DNA of 64,000 nucleotides from Alphaproteobacteria bacterium. Its GTDB lineage: Bacteria > Pseudomonadota > Alphaproteobacteria > Rs-D84. Below the pieces are notes generated by a model. It made no database searches. It was not told the origin of the DNA and saw only the letters and a list, made by a program, of their open reading frames with translations. The first letter of the stretch is position 1. Every line of letters begins with the position of its first letter. Made by a program: the position numbers and the translations under genes. Positions 2,571 to 64,000 of the stretch are shown here, piece by piece. The DNA lies in NCBI GenBank assembly GCA_009783145.1, contig WRHR01000005.1:194-64193 (forward strand). The letters run 5' to 3'.

Positions 2571-2592
2571 AAAGAAACCTCTCTTCAAAAAA

Positions 2593-3183
2593 TGTCAGAC
2601 GGGCCGTAAGCCGGATTCTGTTCTATGGCATAATTAATCTGTCGCGGCGGATTACTCCACCGGATCAAGCCCTCTACCCGCCCCCAACGCCAGGCGCGCT
2701 GGGGACCATGTGGAGAAAATATTGCGCGATTTGCGGCAGGGGATTTGAAGCAAGGACGAGGATTTTCGCGCAGACCGTATATTATACGGGCAAGCGGAAA
2801 TCCGAAGTTATTGATTCAAATACGCGCCGTCGCTTTGCGATGCAGCTAAAATCACCCATCGCTTTGTCAGATTGGCTCGATGTATAATATACATTTTCGC
2901 CAATCTTTCGCGCGCTGTGCGATTTTATCTCGCACAAATCGCGCAATATTTTCTCCACATGGCCCCTGGGGGCCTATTTGAAGTTGCACCACATAGAGAT
3001 TGCCCGTTTCACCCGCCTTCGCCAAGGCTACGGCGGGCAAGCCCGTCATGCCTTATTGAAGACGACTCCGTCTCTGTTGCTCTGATCGTCGGGTCGCCCC
3101 GCCGGGCCGTTAGCCCGTATGCTGCCTGGTGGTGTCCGGACTTTCCTCGCCATTTCTGGCGCTATGCCTCGCCCGTCTGACCG
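2593..3183 (-). ncRNA. rnpB: RNase P RNA (bacterial type A core) with large insertion
   Basis: Minus strand contains P4 5' strand GAGGAAAGTCCGGAC (about 3139-3153), P4 3' strand ACAGAATCCGGCTTA (about 2608-2622), P1 pairing GTCAGACGGGC/GCCCGTCTGAC (3171-3181 with 2594-2604), GCAACAGAGA, GGGTGAAAC, CAAATAGG and GGGTAGAGGGC blocks in canonical order. Confidence 0.85.
2706..2962. repeat. 257-nt insertion in rnpB bounded by 28-bp perfect inverted repeat
   Basis: 2706-2733 CCATGTGGAGAAAATATTGCGCGATTTG is the exact reverse complement of 2935-2962; interior holds AT-core palindromes CCGTATATTATACGG and ATGTATAATATACAT. Confidence 0.75.
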
Positions 3184-3235
3184 TTATAAAATACAGCAAA
3201 TTTTCCAAAAATCAATTGATTTTTTCCGCAATAAT

Positions 3236-4516
3236 ATGCACTATGCGTTTGTGTCATTAATTGCCCCAATCTTGAACGAATCCCAACTGCGCGCGTTCGC
3301 GGAGATTGAAAACAGCAACCGCAATATCCTGATTCTGGGGCAAGCCGGAACCGGCAAATCAACCTTTGTGAATTACCTTAAATCGGCCAGTAAAAAGCGT
3401 ATCATCTGCGCCTGCCCAACGGCCGTGTCCGCGCTGAATATCGGCGGGCAGACAATCCATTCCTTGTTCCAAATCCAGCCGCGCGACTTTGTCATGCCGG
3501 ATTTGTTAAAGCTGAAATCTCGCCCGCGAAACATCCTGAATGCCGCGGACTTGCTGATAATCGACGAGGTCTCGATGGTGTCGCCCGACATTCTGGACGC
3601 TATGGATATCCTTAGCCGCTGGGCGAGGAAAAATAACTTGCCCTTTGGCGGGCTGCAGGTCGTCGCAATCGGCGACTTGTTCCAATTGCCGCCTGTGATC
3701 ACCCGCGATGCCGAACAGTTCTATCTGGAATCGTACGGCATGCCGAACGCTTATTTCTTCGACGCGCACGCATACAAGCGCGCTGACTTTAATCGCGCCG
3801 ATTTCGACTTCGTCTATCGTCAAAGCGACGACAATCTGCTGCAGCATTTATTTGATTTAAGAACAGGCGCGGATATCGCGGAGGCGCTGAATTATTTCAA
3901 CAATTTAAAAATCGCGGATGCCGCAAAGCGTGAAAATGCCGTCATTATCACGCCTTTCCGCGCGGTCGCGGATAGAATAAATGCCGACCGCTTGGCGCAA
4001 ATTCCGGCGCCCGAGATAACTTACAAGGGCGAACTGACCGGAAACTTCAACGAAAAAGACGTTCCCGCGCCTATGAACCTGACCTTGAAAATCGGGGCGT
4101 TGGTCGTCTTCGTGAAAAACGGAAACGACTGGCACAACGGCAGCATGGGCATAGTTCGCGAATTGTCGCACAACTTGATAAAGGTCCAACTGCTGGGCGG
4201 CGAACTTGTCGATGTAAAGCCCGACAAATGGGAGAAAATGGAATACGAGCGCGATGAGAAAGACAAGCTGGTTGAAAACGAGGTCGGCAGCTATAAACAA
4301 TTCCCGCTGGCGCTGGGTTATGCGATGACCATTCACAAAGCGCAGGGAAAAACTTTGGATGCAGTCGTTGTGGATATCTCGCGCGGGGCGTTCGCGCACG
4401 GACAGACTTATGTTGCGCTGTCTCGCACGCGGCGCGCGGATGATATGCATATCGCCGCCCCGCTGCGCGGGCGAGATATAATTTTCGATAGACGCGTTTT
4501 GGAATTTGTGGGATAA
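3236..4516 (+). CDS. Pif1/RecD-like superfamily 1 DNA helicase
   Basis: Walker A GQAGTGKST, Walker B IIDEVSMV, GDLFQLPPV, C-terminal TIHKAQGKT...YVALSRTR; ORF-track start 3119 overlaps rnpB so ATG 3236 chosen. Confidence 0.8.
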   Translation: MHYAFVSLIAPILNESQLRAFAEIENSNRNILILGQAGTGKSTFVNYLKSASKKRIICACPTAVSALNIGGQTIHSLFQIQPRDFVMPDLLKLKSRPRNILNAADLLIIDEVSMVSPDILDAMDILSRWARKNNLPFGGLQVVAIGDLFQLPPVITRDAEQFYLESYGMPNAYFFDAHAYKRADFNRADFDFVYRQSDDNLLQHLFDLRTGADIAEALNYFNNLKIADAAKRENAVIITPFRAVADRINADRLAQIPAPEITYKGELTGNFNEKDVPAPMNLTLKIGALVVFVKNGNDWHNGSMGIVRELSHNLIKVQLLGGELVDVKPDKWEKMEYERDEKDKLVENEVGSYKQFPLALGYAMTIHKAQGKTLDAVVVDISRGAFAHGQTYVALSRTRRADDMHIAAPLRGRDIIFDRRVLEFVG

Positions 4517-7014: not shown

Positions 7015-8778
7015 TTATACTCTGGCCCCGGCGTTGAAGCCTATGCGTTTGGAGATTCCTGCGGATTTGCGAGCTTTCAGCAATTCATCTATTTTATTCG
7101 TAGTGAATTCTGTCGCTGTATCTTCGCCGCCGCCCAGCAATAACTCGCGCCGCAGCATTGCAGTTATGGAGCGCTGTAATTCCCTGACGCCCTGCTCTGC
7201 TGTGTAGTTGCGGATGATATGACGCAGCGCTTCATCGTTGATTTTTATATTTTCCGCATTCCAGCCCGCGTCTTTTGCCGCGCGCTTTATTAAATGCTCG
7301 CGAGCAATATTCAATTTTTCCTCTTCCGAATATCCCGGAATTTCAATAATTTCCATTCTATCTTTTAATGCCGGAGACATATTCAGAGTATTCGCCGTTG
7401 CGATAAACACTACATTGCCCAGGTCAAAATCAACCTCCAAATAATGGTCGCGGAAGCTTTTATTCTGTTCCGGGTCCAGGACTTCCAACAGGGCGCTTTC
7501 CGGATCGCCGCGATGGTCACGGCCCATTTTATCAATCTCGTCCAACACAATCACCGGATTATTCGCGCCGCATCTTTTCAGCGCATCCATAATGCGTCCC
7601 GGCTGGGACCCGATATAAGTCTTGCGATGCCCGCGAAAGTGCGCTTCATCCGATACTCCGCCCAGTGAAATTCTATGATATTTGCGCCCCAGTGCCTTGG
7701 CCACGGATTTGCCGAGACTCGTCTTACCAACACCAGGCGCGCCAACCAAGCACAATATAGTGCCCGAGATATTTCCCGTTTTGCGCATCACCGCGATGTG
7801 TTCCAGAATTCTTTCTTTTATCGGCTGCATTCCGGAATGCTCGGCATCCAGCGCCACGCGTGCCGCGGTCAAATCAATTTTCGCCTTATCCGATTTATCC
7901 CATGGCATTGACAGCAGCTCGTCCAAATAAGTTTTCAACACCGCGCCTTCGGTGCTCATCGCGTTATGGCCGCGCATTCTGCGCCATTCGGACATTGCTT
8001 TGTCTTTCGCCTCTTTCGGCATTGCAGAATTTTCAATCCTGCGCTTTAAACTTTCCGTGTCCATTTCATCGCTGTCTTCGCCCAGCTCTTTCTGAATTGC
8101 TTTCAGCTTTTCCTGCAAGACTATATTGCGATGCCCGCCATCCATTTGCTGTTGCACGCGCTTGGAAATCGATGCGTCTATCTTCGCGATTTCCGCCATC
8201 ACTCCGATCTGTTCCAAAATCAGCACCAGCTTTTCGCGATATGTCCGCGCGCTCAGTATCCTAACCGCCGCCTCGGTCTCCATATTGGTCATCTGAATAA
8301 CGGCATCTATGAACGCCGGCATCGGATAGTTCTGGATTATCGCGTTCAGCTTGTCCATTCTGAACTTTCTCGGCAGCGCCAGAGCCGGCAATTCCGCTGC
8401 AACTTTGTCTCGCAGCGCGGCCGTTTGCTCGAAATTACTGTCATCTATAAAGGGCAGCTCGGCCGGAATACCTGAAAACAAGCCGTCCTCTACCGAAATA
8501 TCGGAAATCGAAACCGCCGCCTTAGTCTGGACTATCGTATGTATGGAGTTATCCGGAAGCCGCAATATCTGAATCACGTCCGCCAGGGTCCCGGTATCGT
8601 ACAGCTCTTCCGGCGCGACCGGATAGTTCCATTTGTGCTGAGGCGCGATTATCACGCGGCGGTTCGCGGCGACGGCCGCCTCCATACACGCGACGGAAAT
8701 CTGGTTATCAAGATAAATCGGAACGGTCAGGCCCGGCTGGACCACCAAATCCTTTAAGGGTAAAATGAATTCTTTCAT
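7015..8778 (-). CDS. Lon-like AAA+ ATPase (LON N-domain + AAA+ module, no S16 protease domain)
   Basis: N-terminal LPLKDLVVQPGLTVPIYL, Walker A GAPGVGKTS, Walker B VIVLDEIDK, Lon-type sensor region; ORF stops right after the AAA+ alpha-subdomain and abuts tsaB start with no gap. Confidence 0.8.
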   Translation of the reverse strand: MKEFILPLKDLVVQPGLTVPIYLDNQISVACMEAAVAANRRVIIAPQHKWNYPVAPEELYDTGTLADVIQILRLPDNSIHTIVQTKAAVSISDISVEDGLFSGIPAELPFIDDSNFEQTAALRDKVAAELPALALPRKFRMDKLNAIIQNYPMPAFIDAVIQMTNMETEAAVRILSARTYREKLVLILEQIGVMAEIAKIDASISKRVQQQMDGGHRNIVLQEKLKAIQKELGEDSDEMDTESLKRRIENSAMPKEAKDKAMSEWRRMRGHNAMSTEGAVLKTYLDELLSMPWDKSDKAKIDLTAARVALDAEHSGMQPIKERILEHIAVMRKTGNISGTILCLVGAPGVGKTSLGKSVAKALGRKYHRISLGGVSDEAHFRGHRKTYIGSQPGRIMDALKRCGANNPVIVLDEIDKMGRDHRGDPESALLEVLDPEQNKSFRDHYLEVDFDLGNVVFIATANTLNMSPALKDRMEIIEIPGYSEEEKLNIAREHLIKRAAKDAGWNAENIKINDEALRHIIRNYTAEQGVRELQRSITAMLRRELLLGGGEDTATEFTTNKIDELLKARKSAGISKRIGFNAGARV

Positions 8779-8823
8779 AGCAAGATATAATATAGAGTAT
8801 TTCTGGGAATAGTCAATAGTCAT

Positions 8824-9102: not shown

Positions 9103-9140
9103 CTTCTCATTCCTTTGTTATTGTTATACAATTTATAAGT

Positions 9141-9718
9141 GCCGGATTCTGGTGCCAGGCTCCGGCGGGCCCCGCATAAGCTAAGCGGGCGTTGCGACAA
9201 TTGCCGCGCGCGCCCTTGTGCCCTTAGGCAGCCAATGCAAGGCGAACATTGCTGTTCGCAGCGATTCTATCGCCATTCAGTTTTTTTCAGCCTTTTTCGG
9301 GAGCAACCCCGGACGCACTCTTTATCTTTCAGCCATTGTCGAGCCTGGTTCACCCCCATGCGCGGCTGCGCCGCGAGAGTGGCGCAAATGCTTCGCATTT
9401 GCTAGAGTAAAGATTCTTCGGCTGCGCCGAAAAATCAGAGTATTCGCTCGCTTCGCTCGCAGAGTAGGAGAGTAAGAGAGTAAAAGAGTAAAAGAGCATC
9501 TAAAACTCTACTACTCTCTTACTCTGCAAATGCGAAGCATTTGCGCTACTCTGCCGGCGAAGCCGGCGTCACTCTGCGCGCGAAGCGCGCGCTACTCTCA
9601 TCCACCATTTCCTATTGCGCCGCAGGCGCAATAGGAAATGGTGGAGGTGCCGGGTACCGCCCCCGGGTCCAAAAAGCCTATTGCATAAAGCATTCAGCAT
9701 CGTCTTCCCCGAAGGGAC
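9141..9718 (-). ncRNA. ssrA: two-piece (circularly permuted) tmRNA gene
   Basis: Acceptor piece ends ...GGACCCGGGGGCGGTACCCGGCACCTCCACCA (CCA at 9639). Coding piece starts GGGGGTGAACCAGGCTCGAC at 9357. GGGGGTG pairs 7/7 with CACCTCC including G3:U70. Tag frame GCT GCG AAC AGC AAT GTT CGC CTT GCA TTG GCT GCC TAA = AANSNVRLALAA. Confidence 0.8.
9358..9638. repeat. ~280-nt tmRNA intervening segment built of AGAGTANN octamers and GCGAAGC-centred mini-hairpins
   Basis: AGAGTAGG AGAGTAAG AGAGTAAA AGAGTAAA on one side and TACTCT units on the other, interspersed with GCAAATGC-GAAG-CATTTGC, GCCGGCGAAGCCGGC, GCGCGCGAAGCGCGCGC, CGCTCGCTTCGCTCGC. Confidence 0.75.
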
Positions 9719-9724
9719 TTACTA

Positions 9725-9752
9725 ATTATAAGGGAAATTTATGAAAAATCAA
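9725..9752 (-). promoter_or_regulatory. sigma70-like promoter TTGATT-16-TATAAT for ssrA
   Basis: Minus strand -35 at 9752-9747, -10 at 9730-9725; predicted start gives an acceptor piece of about 80 nt. Confidence 0.45.
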
Positions 9753-10051
9753 GCGCCTTGCTTTTTCGCCGCAGCCAATGCCGCGCGCAAGGATTTCTCG
9801 GCCAAAACCCGGATTTTCGGCGCAAATGCCCGCATATTCATCGCGTCTGCCACAGAATTCGCGAAAAGCTCTGCTATATAATTAACCTGAGTCGGCGCAA
9901 TCACGAAGACTTCACTGGAAATCTGTTCGGGCCGCAACTTCAATGCGCCCCCCTTCGCTGAAGCTATGGGGGGCAGGCCCGGGGTCGGCCTGTCCGCCGG
10001 AGCCTTGGCGTAGGCGGATTTTTTTATGATGTCTTCTATTGAATTTTCCAT
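9749..10051 (-). CDS. hypothetical protein containing two copies of the GC-hairpin insert
   Basis: 100-aa ORF divergent from secA; residues YAKAPADRPTPGLPPIASAKGG are encoded by hairpin copies at 9948-9973 and 9993-10018. Confidence 0.45.
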   Translation of the reverse strand: MENSIEDIIKKSAYAKAPADRPTPGLPPIASAKGGALKLRPEQISSEVFVIAPTQVNYIAELFANSVADAMNMRAFAPKIRVLAEKSLRAALAAAKKQGA

Positions 10052-10149: not shown

Positions 10150-12774
10150 ATGATTCAAAGAGCTATTAGTAGAGTTTTAAGGAAAGTTTTGGGTTCCGCA
10201 AACGACCGCGTTGTGCGTTCTTATGACAAAATCGTATCCATAATCAATGATTTAGAGCCGAAATACCACGCAATGTCCGACGAACAGCTGCGCGCGGTAA
10301 CCACCCAATTGCGCCAGAGACTTAGCGACGGGGCCAGCGAGAGAGACATTCGTCCCGACGCTTTCGCCGCCGTGCGCGAGGCCTCGATCCGAACGCTGGG
10401 GATGCGGCACTTCAATGTCCAGCTTATCGGCGGCATGGTCTTGAACAACGGCCAGATTACCGAAATGAAGACCGGCGAAGGAAAAACCCTGGTCGCGACG
10501 CTGGCGCTATATTTGAAAGCCCTGCACGGAAAAGGAGCGCACCTGATTACGGTCAACGACTATCTTGCGTCGCGCGACGCCAATTGGATGGGTGCTATTT
10601 ACAAGTTCCTGGGTTTAACCGTCGGCATTATCCAGCACGATATGACGGACGAGGAGCGCCGCGAGGCATACGCCTGCGACATCACATACGTGACTAATTC
10701 CGAGCTGGGATTCGACTATCTGCGCGACAATATGAAATTCAGCAAGGACCAGCAGGTCTTGCGCCCGTTCTTTTACGGCATCGTCGACGAGGTCGACAGT
10801 ATTCTGATCGACGAGGCGCGCACTCCTCTCATCATTTCCGGACCCGCCGAAGACACCAGCGAGCTTTATAACGCCGTCGACGCGATCGTTGCGAAGTTCT
10901 CGCCCGACGATTATAAAAAAGATGAAAAAGACCGCCATGTCACCCTTACCGACTGCGGCACGGATACGGCAACCGCTATGCTGGCCGAGGCGGGCCTGCT
11001 GACCGGCACAAACCTTTACGCGCCGGAAAACGCCATGCTGGTGATGCATATCCAGCAAGCATTATTGGCTCATCACCTGTTCAAGAAGGAAGTGAATTAC
11101 GTCGTCCGCGGCGGCGAAGTTCTTATCGTCGACGAATTCACCGGGCGCGTTATGACCGGGCGCCGCTTCAGCAAAGGCTTGCACCAGGCGCTGGAGGCCA
11201 AGGAGCATGTAAAGATTCAGCCGGAAAATCAGACCGTATCCAGCATTTCCTATCAGAACCTGTTCCGCCTGTATCCGAAATTGGCGGGTATGACCGGCAC
11301 CGCTATGACCGAAGCCGTGGAATTCGAAGAGATTTACAAGCTGCGCGTCGTATCCATTCCCACTAACCGCCCCGTCGTTCGCGTCGATCATCACGATGAG
11401 ATCTATCGAAACAAGCAGGAAAAATTCGACGCTATAATCGAACAGCTGCGTGATTGCCAGACGCGCAAACAGCCCGTCTTGGTCGGCACGGTATCTATCG
11501 AAAAATCGGAAGAGCTGGCCGAGATTGTTGAGAAACGACTCAAAATCAAGCCCGCCGTCCTTAACGCTAAGCATCACGAATCCGAAGCGAGAATCGTTGC
11601 GCAGGCCGGCGTCCCGGGCCGCATTACCATTGCCACGAACATGGCCGGCCGCGGAACCGATATCAAGCTGGGGGGAAATGCCGAGGAGCTGATTGCGGCG
11701 CTGGACGCGGATGCGCCGGACTTTGAAAAAAAGAAAAAAGAAATTTATGAAAAAATCGAAGCCGACAAAAAAACCGTTCTGGATGCCGGCGGCCTGTACG
11801 TAATCGGAACCGAACGGCACGAGTCCCGCCGCATCGACAACCAGTTGCGCGGACGATCCGGACGCCAGGGCGATCCCGGCGATTCAAAATTCTTCCTTGC
11901 GCTGGACGACGACTTGATGCGCATCTTCGGCGCGGCGCGCCTGGACGGAATGCTGATGACCTTGGGCCTTAAACCGGGAGAAGCCATAAAGCATCCTTGG
12001 ATCACCAAAGCCTTGGAAAAAGCGCAAAAGCGCGTTGAAGCCCGCTATTTCGAATCCCGCAAAGAACTGCTGAAATACGACAATGTTATGAACGACCAAA
12101 GAAACGTGGTGTACAAGCAGCGCGATGATTTGATGACCAGCGATGACTTGACAGGGTTGGCGAAAGAACTGCTGGCGGACGTCGTGGAAAATATTGCGGA
12201 GATGAACATTCCGGAAAAAACGCGACCGGAAGATTGGAACATCGCCGGCATTCATGATGCTATGCAGCGCGTGTTCGGAATGGATATCACGGACCTTGAT
12301 TCTTGGAAGACCGACGAATCCATCACGGAGCAAAAAGCCTATGAATCCCTGCTGCGCCTTGCGCAGAACCGCTATGACCACCAGGCAGAGAGATACGGGC
12401 CCGAGCTGATGCAGACCGCGCAGAAACAAATGATGCTGTCGGCGCTGGACAATACCTGGCGCAAGCACTTACAAGCTATGGACATGCTGCAATCGGGCAT
12501 CGGGCTGCGCGGGTACGCTCAGAAAAATCCGCTTTACGAATATAAGCGCGAAGCGTTCGAATTATTCCGCGGGATGATGAATAACTTCAAGTCAATGTCG
12601 ATGGCATATCTGTGCCGGATGGAATTGTCGCGCGACGATATCGATGCGACCAAGCGCGAGCATGAAGAGCGCGACGCGACGCTGAACACCGCCCCCGGCA
12701 CCACGAACCGCAATGCGCTGTGCCCCTGCGGCAGCGGCCTTAAATACAAGCATTGCTGCGGGAAGCTGAAGTAA
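10150..12774 (+). CDS. secA: preprotein translocase ATPase SecA
   Basis: 874 aa; MKTGEGKT, VDEVDSILIDEARTPLIISG, TNMAGRGTDI, C-terminal zinc motif CPCGSGLKYKHCCG. Confidence 0.97.
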   Translation: MIQRAISRVLRKVLGSANDRVVRSYDKIVSIINDLEPKYHAMSDEQLRAVTTQLRQRLSDGASERDIRPDAFAAVREASIRTLGMRHFNVQLIGGMVLNNGQITEMKTGEGKTLVATLALYLKALHGKGAHLITVNDYLASRDANWMGAIYKFLGLTVGIIQHDMTDEERREAYACDITYVTNSELGFDYLRDNMKFSKDQQVLRPFFYGIVDEVDSILIDEARTPLIISGPAEDTSELYNAVDAIVAKFSPDDYKKDEKDRHVTLTDCGTDTATAMLAEAGLLTGTNLYAPENAMLVMHIQQALLAHHLFKKEVNYVVRGGEVLIVDEFTGRVMTGRRFSKGLHQALEAKEHVKIQPENQTVSSISYQNLFRLYPKLAGMTGTAMTEAVEFEEIYKLRVVSIPTNRPVVRVDHHDEIYRNKQEKFDAIIEQLRDCQTRKQPVLVGTVSIEKSEELAEIVEKRLKIKPAVLNAKHHESEARIVAQAGVPGRITIATNMAGRGTDIKLGGNAEELIAALDADAPDFEKKKKEIYEKIEADKKTVLDAGGLYVIGTERHESRRIDNQLRGRSGRQGDPGDSKFFLALDDDLMRIFGAARLDGMLMTLGLKPGEAIKHPWITKALEKAQKRVEARYFESRKELLKYDNVMNDQRNVVYKQRDDLMTSDDLTGLAKELLADVVENIAEMNIPEKTRPEDWNIAGIHDAMQRVFGMDITDLDSWKTDESITEQKAYESLLRLAQNRYDHQAERYGPELMQTAQKQMMLSALDNTWRKHLQAMDMLQSGIGLRGYAQKNPLYEYKREAFELFRGMMNNFKSMSMAYLCRMELSRDDIDATKREHEERDATLNTAPGTTNRNALCPCGSGLKYKHCCGKLK

Positions 12775-12800: not shown

Positions 12801-12920
12801 AATTAGCGATTAGCAATTATCAATTAGCGGTTAAACGCAACATAAACATTGTCCATTATAATGGACATCGTTATTCACACACTCTAAATCGCTAATCGCT
12901 AATTGATAATTGCTAATTTA
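12801..12920. repeat. heptamer-arm hairpin element H1 with TGTCCATTATAATGGACA core
   Basis: Left arm ATTAGCG ATTAGCA ATTATCA ATTAGCG (12802-12829), core palindrome 12850-12867, right arm CGCTAAT CGCTAAT TGATAAT TGCTAAT (12889-12916); right arm runs into dnaE stop codon. Confidence 0.8.
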
Positions 12921-24329: not shown

Positions 24330-24399
24330 CGGAATTCCTTTTTTAAGTATTTTATGAGAAAAGAACAGATAATGCAGTAAGAAAAAAATCGGCCAATAT

Positions 24400-24623
24400 A
24401 ATGACTAATGACTAATGACTAATGACTAATGACTAATGACATGTCAACTGTCCGCGGTTGTCCAATATATTAGACAACCGATAACGGCCTTTGTTATATA
24501 GTCTTTTTCATCTTTGCTATTCTAGTATACTAGAATAGCAAAGATGAAACAAAATGTCCTTTATAAAGGACAAGCATTAGTATCCATTATCTATTATCCA
24601 TTGGTCATTAGTCATTAGTCATT
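24400..24623. repeat. heptamer-arm hairpin element H3 (AATGACT units) with three internal palindromes
   Basis: AATGACT x6 at 24400-24440; GGTCATTAGTCATTAGTCATT at 24603-24623; internal palindromes about 24467-24488, 24508-24547 (40 nt perfect) and 24555-24572 TGTCCTTTATAAAGGACA. Confidence 0.8.
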
Positions 24624-24624
24624 A

Positions 24625-29505: not shown

Positions 29506-29573
29506 ATTTACGATTTGCGATTTACGATTTGTTGGGAGTGAAATCGTAAATCGCAAATCGTAAATCGTAAATT
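29506..29573. repeat. heptamer-arm hairpin H4 (ATTTRCG units), no AT-rich core
   Basis: ATTTACG ATTTGCG ATTTACG ATTTG / loop TTGGGAGTG / AAATCGT AAATCGC AAATCGT AAATCGT; begins right after the smpB stop. Confidence 0.75.
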
Positions 29574-34672: not shown

Positions 34673-34749
34673 GCGAGCGTAGCTCAGTTGGCTAGAGCGC
34701 AACCTTGCCAAGGTTGAGGTCGAGGGTTCGAGCCCCTTTGCTCGCACCA
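34673..34749 (+). tRNA. tRNA-Gly(GCC)
   Basis: GCGAGCG-TA-GCTC-AGTTGGCTA-GAGC-G-CAACC-TTGCCAA-GGTTG-AGGTC-GAGGG-TTCGAGC-CCCTT-TGCTCGC-A-CCA. Confidence 0.9.
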
Positions 34750-34880
34750 CACTTCGCGTCTGTGACGCTTCGTGTGGCTTCGCCACGCGAAATGCGGAGC
34801 AGCGAAGTCCAACGAAGCCTTGGCGAAGTTGGATGAACGCGAAGTAGTGCCACCCGTAGCCTTGGCGTAGGGTGGCGGAG
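34745..34880. repeat. tRNA-3'-flank repeat, copy 1 (with extra GC-hairpin module)
   Basis: CACCACACTTCGCGTCTGTGACGCTTCGTGTGG..CCACGCGAAATGCGGAGCAG..AACGCGAAGTAGTG..GCCTTGGCG; first 57 nt differ at only a few positions from 53508-53564. Confidence 0.8.
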
Positions 34881-42155: not shown

Positions 42156-42286
42156 AATGACTAATGACCAATGACTAATTAATGGGTTCGCTTTCGCTCA
42201 CAAGTTCATCGACTGGATTGCTTCGGCTTCGCCTCGCAATGACAATTTAGCGTGGATTGGTAATTAGTCATTGGTCATTAGTCATT
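42156..42286. repeat. heptamer-arm hairpin H5 (AATGACT/AATGACC units) carrying a family D half-element as core
   Basis: 42156-42181 is the exact reverse complement of 42261-42286 (26 bp); interior 42213-42246 equals the family D arm. Confidence 0.8.
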
Positions 42287-43232: not shown

Positions 43233-43304
43233 AAAAGTAGAAAGTAGCAAGTAGAAAGTAGAAAATATATACCCCCTACTTCCTACTTTCTACTTGCTAC
43301 TTTT
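43233..43304. repeat. heptamer-arm hairpin H6 (GTAGAAA/GTAGCAA units)
   Basis: AGTAGCAAGTAGAAAGTAG in left arm pairs with CTACTTTCTACTTGCTACT in right arm; right arm covers the last four codons (KSSK) and stop of murJ. Confidence 0.75.
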
Positions 43305-49389: not shown

Positions 49390-51150
49390 TCAGCCAATCG
49401 TCGCTTTTATACGGCGGACGCCGGCGGCGCTGGATTCTTCTTTTTGGATTTTGAATTTGCCCAAGTCGGCCGTATTCGCAGCATGCGGACCGCCGCAGAT
49501 TTCTTTCGAATAATCGCCTATCGTATAAACTTTTACCAGCTCGCCATATTTGCTTTCAAACACTCCCATAGCACCCGCCGCCTTGGCATCCGCGACCGTC
49601 ATTTCTTCGCACATCACCGGCAATCCGGCCGCGATTGCTTCATTAACTATTTGTTCCACTTGTGCCAGCTCTGCGGGTTCCATGCGCCGATCGAACGAAA
49701 AGTCAAAACGAAGGCGCTCGGCCGTGATATTCGCGCCTTTTTGAAAAACCGTATCGCCCAAGACCCTGCGCAATGCCGCCTGTAACAAATGCGCCGCGGT
49801 ATGCAGCTTTGTCGTTTCCTCGCTGTTATCGGCCAGGCCTCCTTTAAACTTATTTTCCGCCCCTGCCCTGGATTTTTCCTGATGCTCTGCATATAAACGA
49901 TGAAAGCCGTCCGTATCGACTTTGACACCGCGCTCGGTCGCCAGTTCCTGCGTGAATTCCAGCGGAAAGCCGTAAGTATCATAAAGCCGGAACGCGTCCG
50001 CCGCCGCCAGCTTTTTATCCGTCGCCGCGTCCAAGTATTTCGTTGCGATTTTCATCCCAGCGTCCAATGCCCGTCCGAACAATTCTTCCTCGCGATTCAG
50101 GTTCTTTATTATGAATTCCCGGTTGCGTTCCAATTCCGGATATACGTCCCTATAATTATCGACCACAACCTGCGCCACCGCCGACATAGCCTTTGCCGGA
50201 GCGCCCAGCCCGCTCAGATACCGATACGCCCTGCGAATCAGACGGCGCAATATATAGCCTTGATCCACATTCGACGGCATAATCCCCTTGTCGTCGCCAA
50301 GTATAAACGTCGAAGCCCGAAGGTGGTCGGCAACGATTCTGTATGCTTTGATATTAGGCTGGGCATATTTAGTTCCCGTCATCTCTTCTATTTTTTTAAT
50401 AATCGGCTGAAACAACTCCGTCTCGAAAACACTGGCCACGCCGTTCATCACGCAGAGCGTGCGTTCCAATCCCATTCCCGTATCAACATTTTGCTGTGAC
50501 AGGGGGGTATACTTGCCTTCCTTGTCCTTGTTATACTGCATAAAGACATTATTCCAGATTTCCAAATATTTGCCGCAGTTGCACGCCGGGCCGCAATCAG
50601 GTCCGCACTTTGGTTGGCCGTTGTCATAAAATATCTCTGTGTCCGGTCCGCAAGGCCCGGTTACCAGCCCCCACCAGTTTTCTTTTTTCGGATAAAAGAA
50701 AATACGCTCGTCCGGATAGCCCAGCGCGCGCCAAGCGTCCGCCGCCTCGTTATCGCGCGGAGCGTCCTGGTCCCCGGCAAAGCAAGTCACGGTTATTCTT
50801 TCCTGCGGGATTTTCAGGATTTGCGTCAAAAACTCGTGGCTGAACGCGATGGATTCTTTCTTGAAATAGTCCCCCAGAGACCAATTGCCCAGCATTTCAA
50901 AGAAGGTCAAATGACTGGCATCGCCGACTTCGTCGATATCGCCCGTGCGCAGGCACTTTTGAAAATCGACCAAACGGCGCCCCAACGGGTGTTTTTCTCC
51001 CAAAAGATACGGCAGCAGCGGATGCATGCCAGCCGTCGTGAAAAGTACTGACGGATCGTTTTCCGGCATCAAGGATGCCGACGGGATTTGTTTATGTCCG
51101 CGTTCGATGAAAAAATTTATAAAAAGCTGCCGCAGTTCGTTTGCTGTCAT
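49390..51150 (-). CDS. alaS: alanyl-tRNA synthetase, short form (586 aa)
   Basis: Class II catalytic core (FTTAGMHP, FEMLGNWS), editing-site HTAAHLL and CGGPH; ends right after AAGVRRIKA. Confidence 0.9.
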   Translation of the reverse strand: MTANELRQLFINFFIERGHKQIPSASLMPENDPSVLFTTAGMHPLLPYLLGEKHPLGRRLVDFQKCLRTGDIDEVGDASHLTFFEMLGNWSLGDYFKKESIAFSHEFLTQILKIPQERITVTCFAGDQDAPRDNEAADAWRALGYPDERIFFYPKKENWWGLVTGPCGPDTEIFYDNGQPKCGPDCGPACNCGKYLEIWNNVFMQYNKDKEGKYTPLSQQNVDTGMGLERTLCVMNGVASVFETELFQPIIKKIEEMTGTKYAQPNIKAYRIVADHLRASTFILGDDKGIMPSNVDQGYILRRLIRRAYRYLSGLGAPAKAMSAVAQVVVDNYRDVYPELERNREFIIKNLNREEELFGRALDAGMKIATKYLDAATDKKLAAADAFRLYDTYGFPLEFTQELATERGVKVDTDGFHRLYAEHQEKSRAGAENKFKGGLADNSEETTKLHTAAHLLQAALRRVLGDTVFQKGANITAERLRFDFSFDRRMEPAELAQVEQIVNEAIAAGLPVMCEEMTVADAKAAGAMGVFESKYGELVKVYTIGDYSKEICGGPHAANTADLGKFKIQKEESSAAGVRRIKATIG

Positions 51151-51195: not shown

Positions 51196-51440
51196 CAAGT
51201 AGCAAGTAGAAAGTAGGAAGTAGGAGGTAGGAGGTAGGAAGTAGGAAGTAGGAGGTAGGAAGTAGGAAGTAGGAGGTAGGAGGTAGGAGGTAGGAGGTAT
51301 AAAAGGGCCGATAGTAATCTTTACCATACTAGTATGATAAGTATAAAATGCTTTGTTCGTTATATTCGTTATAATGGACATCATATTTATAACCTCCTAC
51401 TTCCTACTTCCTACCTCCTACTTCCTACTTTCTACTTCCT
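51196..51440. repeat. heptamer-arm hairpin H7 (GTAGGAA/GTAGGAG units), largest copy
   Basis: About 15 tandem GTAGNAR units at 51196-51300; complementary CCTCCTAC/TTCCTAC units at 51392-51440; interior has CATACTAGTATG palindrome (51325-51336) and core half-site GTTATAATGGACA (51368-51380). Confidence 0.8.
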
Positions 51441-51463
51441 ATCTTTTATGCTATAATTCAACT

Positions 51464-53436: not shown

Positions 53437-53512
53437 GCCGGTTTAGCTCATCTGGTAGAGCGGCTGATTTGTAATCAGCAGGTAGTTGGTTCGAGTCCGA
53501 CAACCGGCACCA
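53437..53512 (+). tRNA. tRNA-Thr(TGT)
   Basis: GCCGGTT-TA-GCTC-ATCTGGT-AGAGC-G-GCTGA-TTTGTAA-TCAGC-AGGTA-GTTGG-TTCGAGT-CCGAC-AACCGGC-A-CCA. Confidence 0.9.
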
Positions 53513-53625
53513 CACTTCGCGTCTGCGACGCTTCGTGTGGCAAGCCACGCGAAATGCGGAGCAGTGCAACGCGAAGTAGTGTCGCCCGAAGCCTTGGCGA
53601 AGGGGGACCGGCAAGCCACCAAAAA
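53508..53625. repeat. tRNA-3'-flank repeat, copy 2
   Basis: Same modules and order as 34745-34880, starting at the last acceptor-stem nucleotide of the tRNA. Confidence 0.8.
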
Positions 53626-55374: not shown

Positions 55375-55492
55375 TTCCCCTCCTGTGGAGGGGTGGATGC
55401 GAACGAAGTGAGCAGACGGGGTGGTTTGTTTAATGTTCATAGATTACAAGAACCACCCCGCCCCTTCGGGGCACCCCTCCACAGGAGGGGAA
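55375..55492. repeat. palindromic repeat family C, copy 1
   Basis: TTCCCCTCCTGTGGAGGGGTG ... AACCACCCCGCCCCTTCGGGGCACCCCTCCACAGGAGGGGAA; termini are inverted repeats. Confidence 0.75.
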
Positions 55493-55516
55493 CCGCGACT
55501 CCGCCGATATAGTTTA

Positions 55517-56146
55517 TTACTGTAAAATTTTAAGGAGTTCCGTTGCGGCGGCCGAGGTGGCGGATTTTTTTGACGCGCCCGACCCCAATGCGCTTTGCCC
55601 CAGCGCAGATACGCGTACTTTGAACACAGGGCTGTGCGATTTTCCGTCCTCGTCAATAAATTCATATTCCGGCAGCGCGCCGCCGCCGTTCTTCTGCACG
55701 AATTCCTGCAACGCCGTTTTGGAATCTTTTGGCGGAATCGCATCCCTTGCCGCCAGGTCGCGCCAGATTCGCGTCACTTCCGCGCTGGCCGCTGGAAATC
55801 CGCCGTCCAGAAATATCGCGCCCAAGACCGATTCCATCGCGTTTGCCGCGATGTGATTCATCTTGCCAGCGGTCATATGTCCGTGCCGGATTTTTTTATC
55901 AAAGCCCAGCTCTTTCGCAACCTCGGCCAGTGTTTCGGTAGAGACCAATACTGCATGGCGCCGCGCAAGGTCTCCCTCTGTCTCCGATGGAAACATTTCG
56001 TACAGCAGCGCGGCAACGGACAGGCCCAGTACGCGGTCGCCGATGAATTCCAGACGCTCGTTATTATTAACCGCATCCGCGCCGCTCTGCGTCAGCGCCA
56101 GCGCGAACAACTTTTCATCCACGAATTTGTATCTTAACTTCTTCAT
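55517..56146 (-). CDS. rnc: ribonuclease III
   Basis: ERLEFIGDRVLGL catalytic signature, C-terminal dsRBD; ATGA overlap with lepB stop. Confidence 0.95.
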   Translation of the reverse strand: MKKLRYKFVDEKLFALALTQSGADAVNNNERLEFIGDRVLGLSVAALLYEMFPSETEGDLARRHAVLVSTETLAEVAKELGFDKKIRHGHMTAGKMNHIAANAMESVLGAIFLDGGFPAASAEVTRIWRDLAARDAIPPKDSKTALQEFVQKNGGGALPEYEFIDEDGKSHSPVFKVRVSALGQSALGSGASKKSATSAAATELLKILQ

Positions 56147-57027
56147 TTGATACCCAGACCAAATCTGTCCCATCTCATCTTATCCAGCCAGTTCCACACC
56201 AGCGGCATCCATGAATAGTAATTGTGGCTGTACCACACGAACCAGACTTTGCCCATTATATTATCCCTTGGAACCATGCCCATTTCAGAACGGCTGTCCG
56301 CGGACCAGTCGCGGTCGTCGCCCATAAAGAAATAGTATCCTTCGGGCACCTTGAATAACTGCGTGTTATCATATCTTTCGTTGTCGCTGCGTTCTATAAT
56401 CTGATGTCTGGTGCCATCGGGCAGTACTTCCGTCCATTCGGTCAGCTCATCAATTCCGCCCTCGGCGCAAATCGGCGACATCATGCATTCTCTGCGCGTT
56501 TTGTACTCTATCGTATAGTTAAAGTTCGCGGGCTGGTTGTCTATGAACAGCTTATTGCCTTTAATAGAAATATCGCCCTTATAGAATCCCACGCTGCGGA
56601 TATCGGTCGGCAAGTGCGCGATTATATAGCGGCGCGGGTTTTCGCGTTCTGCCTGCTGCCCGTTTATATACAGCCGGCCGTTTATCATCTGCACCGTGTC
56701 GCCCGGCTTGCCTATCAATCTTTTCACATAATCCAGCGATTCATTCACCGGGTTGCGGAAGACTATGACGTCGCCCACCTTTGGCTCGGACGCCATAAAC
56801 CGACCGTTCCACAGGCGCCAGCTGCCGAACGGAAAGCTATACCTGCTGTATCCGTACGACCATTTCTGGATGAATATATGGTCGCCTACATGCAATGTCG
56901 GAATCATGCTGCCGGACGGGATATTAAAAGGCTCTAGCAGTAGGCTGCGGAAAATTATCGCGATAAGCCCCGCCCAAAATAAAGTATTGACCCATTCGCG
57001 CGTCGTGGATGTATATTTCTTTGCCAT
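56143..57027 (-). CDS. lepB: signal peptidase I
   Basis: IPSGSMIPTL (catalytic Ser), VKRLIG (catalytic Lys), GDDRDWSADSR. Confidence 0.95.
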   Translation of the reverse strand: MAKKYTSTTREWVNTLFWAGLIAIIFRSLLLEPFNIPSGSMIPTLHVGDHIFIQKWSYGYSRYSFPFGSWRLWNGRFMASEPKVGDVIVFRNPVNESLDYVKRLIGKPGDTVQMINGRLYINGQQAERENPRRYIIAHLPTDIRSVGFYKGDISIKGNKLFIDNQPANFNYTIEYKTRRECMMSPICAEGGIDELTEWTEVLPDGTRHQIIERSDNERYDNTQLFKVPEGYYFFMGDDRDWSADSRSEMGMVPRDNIMGKVWFVWYSHNYYSWMPLVWNWLDKMRWDRFGLGIK

Positions 57028-59670: not shown

Positions 59671-59816
59671 GGCGGGGCGGTGTTCCCCTCCTGTGGAGGA
59701 GTGGCGCATCAGCGCCGGGGTAGTTCGGGTAATGTTCGTATATTGTTATAAATGCTCGCGCATTACACAAACCACCCCGCCCCTTCGGGGCACCCCTCCA
59801 CAGGAGGGGAACACCT
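59671..59816. repeat. palindromic repeat family C, copy 2
   Basis: GTGTTCCCCTCCTGTGGAGGAGTGG ... AACCACCCCGCCCCTTCGGGGCACCCCTCCACAGGAGGGGAACAC; 42-nt right block identical to copy 1. Confidence 0.75.
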
Positions 59817-59831
59817 CATCGCGAATTATGG

Positions 59832-63757: not shown

Positions 63758-63759
<2 letters not shown>
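63571..63759 (+). CDS. small acidic secreted protein
   Basis: GGAGAGGAG RBS; signal peptide MKKLALIGIFALLPFVASA; Glu/Val-rich mature part. Confidence 0.5.

Positions 63760-64000
<241 letters not shown>

Follow-up and report, generated by a model that had tools for sequence, protein, structure and literature searches.

The stretch of DNA analysed here (64,000 nt of contig WRHR01000005.1, GenBank assembly GCA_009783145.1, positions 194 to 64,193 of the forward strand), referred to below as the window, comes from an alphaproteobacterium and carries on its minus strand an rnpB gene, encoding the RNA of ribonuclease P (RNase P), that is interrupted by a palindromic element. Scanning with cmscan gave a minus-strand match to RF00010 at 2591–3180 that covers model positions 1–367 and scores 168 bits (cut-off 100, E = 2e-52), in agreement with the original prediction, made from the sequence alone, that the segment lies within RNase P RNA. 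Membership in class A is indicated by the P4 strands GAGGAAAGUCCGG and ACAGAAUCCGGCUUA and the L15 sequence CGGGUA, all present and invariant across the relatives described below. Compared with RF00010, about 275 nt of extra sequence lie inside the P16/P17 hairpin, and the inserted element has a guanine-plus-cytosine (GC) content of 47.5%, against 60.3% for the rnpB core. The sequence of the element is 100% identical in three independent assemblies from three samples (two ENA samples yielded L081 and L082, and a Logan run L084) and is therefore not an assembly artefact. A palindromic insertion is thus present within the essential rnpB gene.

The arm of the element, CCATGTGGAGAAAATATTGCGCGATTTG (28 nt), occurs exactly twice in the window, once on the plus strand (within the 3′ arm of Table 1) and once on the minus strand (within the 5′ arm), and no match arose in 100 dinucleotide shuffles. 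These are the two copies of the perfect 28-bp inverted repeat that had been predicted, and they bracket 201 nt, where about 200 nt had been expected. When a single G-U pair (A/C in the DNA) is allowed, the repeat grows to 32 nt. The AT-core palindromes foreseen in the interior, CCGTATATTATACGG and ATGTATAATATACAT, are both present, and the CAAAUAGG and CGGGUAGAGGGC blocks between which the insertion had been located were confirmed as its landmarks. Folded alone, the element adopts a four-way junction with zero unpaired junction bases, composed of the 32-bp stem and three hairpins. The folding energy of the segment is −133.4 kcal/mol, compared with −82.4 ± 4.8 kcal/mol for shuffled sequences (z = −10.6). 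The two DNA strands of the element fold similarly well (−129.8 and −125.6 kcal/mol), so that the palindromy belongs to the DNA and does not point to selection on the RNA; selection for an RNA-sense structure was rejected on these values.

Table 1 Positions of the interrupted rnpB gene, its inserted elements and related features in the window (MFE, minimum free energy; tmRNA, transfer-messenger RNA)
Feature	Position	Strand	Remarks
rnpB, RNase P RNA, bacterial class A	2591–3180	−	590 nt; RF00010 match; helicase–rnpB synteny with relatives
Inserted palindromic element	2701–2966	−	266 nt, or 261 nt with CCCCA taken as a 5-nt target duplication; absent in 5 relatives
5′ arm (RNA sense) of 32-bp terminal stem	2935–2966	−	Perfect 28 nt at 2935–2962
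Sub-hairpin A	2841–2934	−	94 nt, tip ATGTATAATATACAT (2880–2894); MFE fold, no unpaired junction base at stem
Central hairpin UCGCAAAGCGA	2830–2840	−	11 nt; MFE fold
Sub-hairpin B	2734–2829	−	96 nt, tip CCGTATATTATACGG (2775–2789); MFE fold
3′ arm (RNA sense) of 32-bp terminal stem	2702–2733	−	Perfect 28 nt at 2706–2733
P15 5′ strand CUUC (2980–2983), L15 5′ strand AAAUAGG (2973–2979), P16 5′ strand CCCCC (2968–2972), bulged A (2967)	2967–2983	−	cmscan alignment, pair counts
P17 AGCGC/GCGUU (2696–2700/2686–2690), loop GCCUG (2691–2695) = P6 3′ strand	within 2671–2700	−	
P16 3′ strand GGGGG (2681–2685), L15 3′ strand CGGGUA with CCA-binding GGU (2675–2680), P15 3′ strand GAGG (2671–2674)	within 2671–2700	−	
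P6 5′ strand CAGGC	3124–3128	−	Complementary to P17 loop GCCUG
Second rnpB insertion, in P12	3004–3053	−	About 39 extra nt; dispersed repeat CCnCC-TTCGCCAAGGCTnC-GGnGG-CAGGCC (families D2/D4); absent in relatives
Further CCnCC-TTCGCCAAGGCTnC-GGnGG copies	near 9952, 10001, 15826, 28300, 33296, 34816, 34858, 35025, 40234, 53590		
Two-piece (alpha-type, permuted) tmRNA gene	9138–9756	−	619 nt vs 307–389 nt in relatives
Intergenic hairpins with tandem-heptamer arms	12809–12917, 24399–24624, 29506–29565, 42156–42286, 43241–43303, 51197–51448, 63758–63877		
rnc, RNase III, candidate stem-trimming enzyme	55517–56173	−	218 aa; Pfam Ribonuclease_3 1.8e-19, Ribonucleas_3_3 1.9e-23, dsrm 1.1e-11

Homologues of the SecA protein encoded at 10150–12774 were found at 80–87% identity, and those with names are assigned to a Rickettsiales bacterium, Candidatus Enterousia intestinigallinarum and one Muribaculaceae. 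Helicase and SecA homologues carry the names Alphaproteobacteria, Rickettsiales and Candidatus Enterousia, the last of which is classified as Alphaproteobacteria incertae sedis, and the tmRNA of the window is of the alpha-type two-piece form; on these grounds an assignment to the Candidate Phyla Radiation/Patescibacteria was rejected. The host, a gut alphaproteobacterium with a small genome, is a relative of 'Candidatus Enterousia'; only about 72 kb of its genome sequence could be read. It is present in the metagenomes ERZ27257305, ERZ27257320, SRR5248970 and SRR6220664. On the contigs of the SecA homologues, the gene order SecA, tmRNA, Lon-like protein, TsaB, RimI and PIF1-like helicase is kept. 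Three relatives with a SecA identity of 85–86% (L085, L086 and L090) have an rnpB gene of 284 nt, scoring 208–212 bits, upstream of and divergent from the helicase gene as in the window (L085:3091–3374, L086:4567–4850 and L090:491–774). The RNase P RNA of these three, with no P13/P14 and a P12 of 4–5 bp, is among the smallest type A RNAs. Two further relatives with about 1-Mb genomes and a SecA identity of 80% (L093 and L094) have a 336-nt rnpB gene at other, non-syntenic loci, and a sixth (L099/L100) provides the first 119 nt of the gene, its contig ending in P12; this sequence has the P6 strand CAGGC in common with the window. Helicase-based look-ups in three more relatives gave no rnpB adjacent to the helicase gene. 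No rnpB was found beside homologues of the neighbouring Ldh_2 gene in Rfam and motif scans of 80 loci, the nearest homologue being 63% identical; this gene is patchily distributed, and its best matches are labelled Saccharibacteria or Alphaproteobacteria.

The window rnpB was aligned with the five full-length genes of L085, L086, L090, L093 and L094 (284–336 nt). In this six-sequence alignment, the window sequence alone contains a block of 266 nt and, in P12, one of 39 nt, which bears out the prediction of an insertion rather than a native helix. Deletion of the 266-nt block leaves CCCCC-A-AGCGC-GCCUG-GCGUU-GGGGG, which aligns column by column with the corresponding site of the relatives (CCCCC-AUU-GGCGU-AUCCC-GCGUC-GGGGG in L085 and CCCCC-UUU-GACGU-GUCCC-GCGUU-GGGGG in L086); the artificial empty-site allele reads ...CCCCCAAGCGC... 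Because deletion of the element restores the hairpin of the relatives, the insertion point is the 3–5-nt unpaired bulge between P16 and P17. CCCCA flanks the 261-nt version of the element, as a possible 5-nt target duplication, and these bases could just as well belong to the ends of the 32-bp repeat. The alternative that the segment is a native helix conserved in this clade, or arose in assembly, is refuted by its absence from the five relatives and its identity in the three independent assemblies.

The cmscan match and the alignment place the insertion site in the catalytic domain, six base pairs from the CCA-binding loop L15. Read in the RNA sense, the 5′ strands of P15, L15 and P16 and a single A precede the element, which begins with GGGGCCAUGUGG and ends with CCACAUGGUCCCC (window 2966–2701); P17 with its loop (AGCGC-GCCUG-GCGUU) follows directly, and then the 3′ strands of P16, L15 and P15. 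The original prediction had placed the insertion in the specificity domain, in the neighbourhood of P13/P14. This placement cannot hold, since P13 and P14 are missing from the RNA: 43 model positions are deleted in the window rnpB and in all relatives. The MFE fold of the 313-nt P15–P17 region (−147.3 kcal/mol) keeps P15, P16 and P17, with the element seated on a three-way junction. Enforcing the native-like helices in this region costs 0.4 kcal/mol, and a fold of the full 590-nt RNA retains the same helices. In these models the element is a self-contained domain, and P15, L15, P16, P17 and the pseudoknot between the P17 loop and P6 are all predicted to remain formable. The earlier suggestion of one helix extension that leaves the core undisturbed is thus supported by the predicted folds and by the alignment of the core.

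The gene appears to be still under constraint. With the element trimmed, RNAalifold recovered P1, P3, P5, P7–P9, P12 and P15–P18, with compensatory changes in 24 of the 74 consensus pairs, several of them specific to the window sequence (P3, P18). The differences between the window and its relatives in P1, P3, P6 and P18 are compensatory, and in P6 double-sided changes affect four of the five pairs (CAGGC/GCCUG here, GGGAU/AUCCC and GGGAC/GUCCC in relatives). Across P6 and P15–P17, 94.7% of cells are paired, compared with about 50% when the partners are slid, and the unpaired cells in this count stem from a 2-column misregister of L094. All universally conserved rnpB blocks are intact in the window gene. 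The compensatory changes and intact blocks favour a working gene, so that on this comparative evidence the rnpB with its element is most likely functional, although the constraint data do not date the insertion itself.

These data bear on the alternative that the interrupted gene is decaying or already dead and that RNase P activity comes from a second rnpB, or from a protein-only enzyme, elsewhere in the genome. The small readable fraction of the genome leaves room for such a gene, two insertions have accumulated in one small gene, and its Rfam score is lower than those of the three closest relatives. In Thermodesulfatator indicus, redundancy can accompany oddities of the RNase P RNA (PMC9945441). 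The two insertions alone, however, account for the drop in score, the universal blocks are intact, the differences in the helices are compensatory and the locus is syntenic with that of the relatives. We therefore regard a dead copy as improbable.

Several identities were considered for the element itself. A permissive cmscan of 2696–2967 returned a chance-level match only (E = 3.6), and an intron or a curated RNA family was rejected. A coding element was also rejected, the only open reading frames (ORFs) in it encoding 58 and 59 aa with no family matches, as was a split gene with an internal promoter or terminator, there being no promoter-like site on either strand and a sole terminator-like site in antisense orientation. 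Outside the window, the 21-mer of the arm gave one single-arm match among JGI metagenome contigs (L095), with no flanking similarity and consistent with chance, and zero matches in IMG/VR; the complete element, compared by blastn with PLSDB plasmids and with phage genomes, likewise had zero matches. The CCnCC-TTCGCCAAGGCTnC-GGnGG motif of the D2/D4 repeats is absent from the 266-nt element. Across rnpB and the element, spurious ORFs are found on the plus strand (2872–3180 and 3119–3235); the former, of 102 aa with a TTG start, is antisense to rnpB. The helicase gene as called in one assembly is 39 aa longer and overlaps rnpB; its true start is likely the ATG at 3236.

Miniature inverted-repeat transposable elements (MITEs) of bacteria, such as Correia, ERIC and RUP, are small, non-coding and bounded by long terminal inverted repeats. 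The rnpB element resembles them in its 32-bp terminal inverted repeats, its length of 266 nt, its lack of coding capacity and its ability to fold as a hairpin, and it may also have a short target duplication. It differs in that no other copies were found in the window, the fetched loci, metagenome and viral contigs, plasmids or phages, and no parent insertion sequence with the same ends, about 72 kb of this genome being readable, in that its repeats are unusually long and perfect, and in that its interior contains palindromes only. Rickettsia palindromic elements are palindromic selfish DNA that inserts into functional genes without destroying them. The setting here, a reduced-genome alphaproteobacterium, is similar, and the small D2/D4 repeat behaves in this way in dnaE and in P12 of rnpB. 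In contrast, the 266-nt element shows no family, and the likeness is one of behaviour.

Palindromic DNA that is missing from the closest sequenced relatives is abundant elsewhere in the window. A motif search revealed at least a dozen copies in 64 kb of a dispersed repeat of about 35–40 nt, CCnCC-TTCGCCAAGGCTnC-GGnGG-CAGGCC, some of which lie inside the dnaE, tatD, lysS and queA ORFs. The copy in dnaE is an in-frame insertion of 10–11 aa (GGPAARSLGE) that is absent in L085, L086 and L087. In the tmRNA gene, a 280-nt insertion (9359–9638) separates the acceptor piece, ending in CCACCA, from the coding piece, where the relatives have 8–11 nt; it is made up of GC hairpins with UUCG loops and AGAGUA-type octamers between them, and lies in the intervening segment that is discarded at maturation. 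Intergenic hairpins have arms of tandem heptamers, the unit differing at each locus, around cores that are AT-rich palindromes. The spacer between the SecA gene and dnaE measures 143 nt in the window, compared with 26 nt in both L086 and L089. Heptamer-arm hairpins are absent in L085, L086, L087, L090 and L094, and present in L091 (1813–1878), a relative from the same sample. The link of the rnpB element with these hairpins, as put forward in the original prediction, is only one of style (a long stem and AT-rich palindromic sub-hairpins), whereas no sequence similarity and no heptamer-built arms were found. A further hairpin family, built on CCCCTCCTGTGGAGGGG and CCCCGCCCCTTCGGGGC motifs, occurs at 55432–55493 and 59672–59822 and also in the co-occurring relative (L091:1521–1691). 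The string TGTGGAG, common to the arm and the CCCCTCCTGTGGAGGGG hairpins at both loci of the window, looks coincidental.

One alternative suggested by this abundance is that the segment grew in place through a local palindrome-generating process (hairpin-primed or template-switch replication), as the heptamer-arm hairpins may have done. The genome is full of unique long hairpins with locus-specific arms, and the element is single-copy wherever it was searched for and forms a seamless nest of palindromes, with its junction fully paired. Against this, the arms are complex, non-repetitive and dissimilar to the flanking rnpB sequence, the GC content departs from that of the gene, and the boundaries are sharp, removal of the element restoring the hairpin of the relatives exactly. 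Growth in place is thus unlikely.

We favour the explanation that, in this lineage, a non-coding palindrome of 266 nt became inserted in rnpB at the unpaired P16/P17 bulge. There it would act as a newly born expansion segment, with the ribozyme, according to the models, remaining functional. Its source may be the same palindrome-proliferating process that would have given rise to the P12 repeat, the tmRNA insert, the spacer hairpins and the in-frame protein repeats. Overall, a tolerated palindromic insertion that forms an independent domain of a functional ribozyme, resembles an intervening sequence (IVS) of ribosomal RNA (rRNA) and is probably trimmed by RNase III appears to us the likely account of the locus.

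Several points weigh against this account. No second copy of the element or of its arms was found in the 64-kb window or in 1.08 Mb of fetched loci, and no transposase is encoded within the window; it is the architecture of the element that suggests its mobility. The target-site duplication is ambiguous, being either the 5-nt CCCCA or none. An insertion six base pairs from L15 may carry a steric cost to substrate binding, and a second rnpB or a protein-only RNase P may be encoded in the genome beyond the readable sequence.

In alphaproteobacterial 23S rRNA, the stems of IVSs are processed by RNase III. By analogy, the rnpB transcript would be cut by RNase III in the 32-bp stem, giving an RNase P RNA in two pieces that the stub of the stem and P1, P2, P4, P6, P15 and P16 would keep joined. 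Such cutting is favoured by the near-perfect 32-bp duplex and by the presence of a gene for a canonical RNase III, the product of which has the signature NERLEFIGD and a double-stranded RNA-binding domain; we lean slightly towards cleavage within this stem. The lepB gene (56143–57027, minus strand) adjoins rnc. The likeness to rRNA IVSs extends to the sporadic insertion of 100–400 nt into a helix of an essential, structural RNA and to ends that pair in a long stem, here of 32 bp, with absence from five relatives. In rRNA, RNase III cuts out the stem without religation, and excision of the present element would follow the same course. The differences are that the host gene is rnpB and not 16S or 23S rRNA, and that the element contains no ORF with family support. 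The element may thus work like an IVS and yet fall outside the described rRNA sets, in which bacterial 23S rRNA IVSs occur, for example, in helices 9, 25 and 45, with an instance in Coxiella (PMC4990558).

The competing possibility is that there is no cleavage: the mature RNA would keep the element permanently as an expansion segment, and the enzyme would work as a single 590-nt chain. It is a substantial possibility, to which we give somewhat less than an even chance. A near-perfect duplex of 32 bp is a generic RNase III substrate, the enzyme is encoded, and comparable stems of 23S rRNA are routinely excised in Alphaproteobacteria, all of which argues for removal. Retention is favoured by the predicted fold, in which the core is undamaged and the element forms a domain at its side, and by the RNase P RNAs of the Candidate Phyla Radiation (CPR), which have large unprocessed helix extensions, including in P15 (PMC8172020). 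In the accretion model of RNase P RNA evolution, additions that fold independently at junctions are a normal mode of growth (PMC12974513). The CPR extended helices and the accretion model share with the present case an independent unit at a junction and an undisturbed core. They differ from it in that the states before and after the addition are here separated by only 10–15% in SecA, and in that the added unit is recognisable palindromic DNA.

A more far-reaching version of tolerated insertion with trimming is that the segment is an IVS-like sequence removed by RNase III, leaving a two-piece ribozyme split at P16/P17, and that it belongs to an undescribed class of palindromic elements preferring hairpin loops and bulges. 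We hold this combination as tentative and rather doubtful. The sites at which such a class may settle would be the P12 loop, the P16/P17 bulge, the intervening loop of tmRNA, terminators and in-frame sites in proteins.

Insertions in RNase P RNA have been found in other lineages. Vioque in 1997 reportedly described short tandemly repeated repetitive (STRR) heptamers in P12 of the RNase P RNA of heterocyst-forming cyanobacteria (cited in PMC2858038). The likeness lies in genome-wide repeats that are tolerated in rnpB as a helix extension, and the 39-nt P12 insertion of the window is a direct analogue; the large element, in contrast, is non-tandem, single-copy and outside P12. In T. indicus, an expansion segment of P12 is removed both in vivo and in E. 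coli, leaving a fragmented functional RNA (PMC9945441). Like the present element, it is a lineage-specific extra helix in a type A RNA that is missing in the closest relative (PMC9945441). It is unlike it in having about 70 nt and lying in P12 of the specificity domain, whereas the segment described here has 266 nt and adjoins L15 and P6 at the P16/P17 junction of the catalytic domain. The present element is moreover a perfect DNA palindrome, and its processing is proposed here, whereas that in T. indicus has been reported (PMC9945441). The original prediction had called the tolerance or processing of such an element by an essential ribozyme unusual, a judgement to be tempered, as P12 of other bacterial RNase P RNAs already offers examples of repeat insertions (reportedly, Vioque 1997) and of an excised segment (PMC9945441), and large helix extensions have been reported in the CPR (PMC8172020).

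Repeat-derived or intervening expansion segments are thus a kind already known in RNase P RNA. What distinguishes the present case is the doubling in size of the RNA, a location next to L15 and P6 within the catalytic domain, and the existence of near relatives with an empty site; for a large insert the P16/P17 junction, with the CCA-binding loop and the P6 pseudoknot close by, is a site with no known precedent. RNase P RNA is a model for ancient ribozymes that grow by independent helical modules, and here a 'before' state (284 nt) and an 'after' state (590 nt) coexist among close genomes, with SecA proteins still 85–90% identical. The added module can be recognised as selfish DNA of a palindromic kind, so that repeat proliferation is tied directly to the birth of an expansion segment, and the locus provides a natural test of how bulky an addition the catalytic domain can bear. 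Should the stem be trimmed by RNase III, this would be, after one earlier example, another bacterial RNase P RNA that is fragmented in nature, and the first with its break in the catalytic domain. If, in addition, the element belongs to a palindromic class as set out above, the genome would offer a live example of expansion-segment birth in essential RNAs. Insertions of this kind depress covariance-model scores and create spurious ORFs, so that annotation pipelines may miss or mis-call rnpB.

Other features of the window were also recorded. The same hairpin of about 35 nt, CACCACACTTCGCGTCTGTGACGCTTCGTGTGGC, and an identical 21-mer (34782–34802 and 53544–53564) follow both of two tRNA genes, at 34717–34778 and 53480–53541. 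The Lon-like protein encoded at 7015–8823 (minus strand, 602 aa) has substrate-binding, AAA and lid domains and gave no match to the Lon protease domain; the form, with 585–590 aa, is conserved in the relatives. The alanine-tRNA ligase encoded at 49390–51150 (minus strand) is short, with 586 aa (NCBIfam PRK01584), and is without the C-terminal part of the canonical enzyme.

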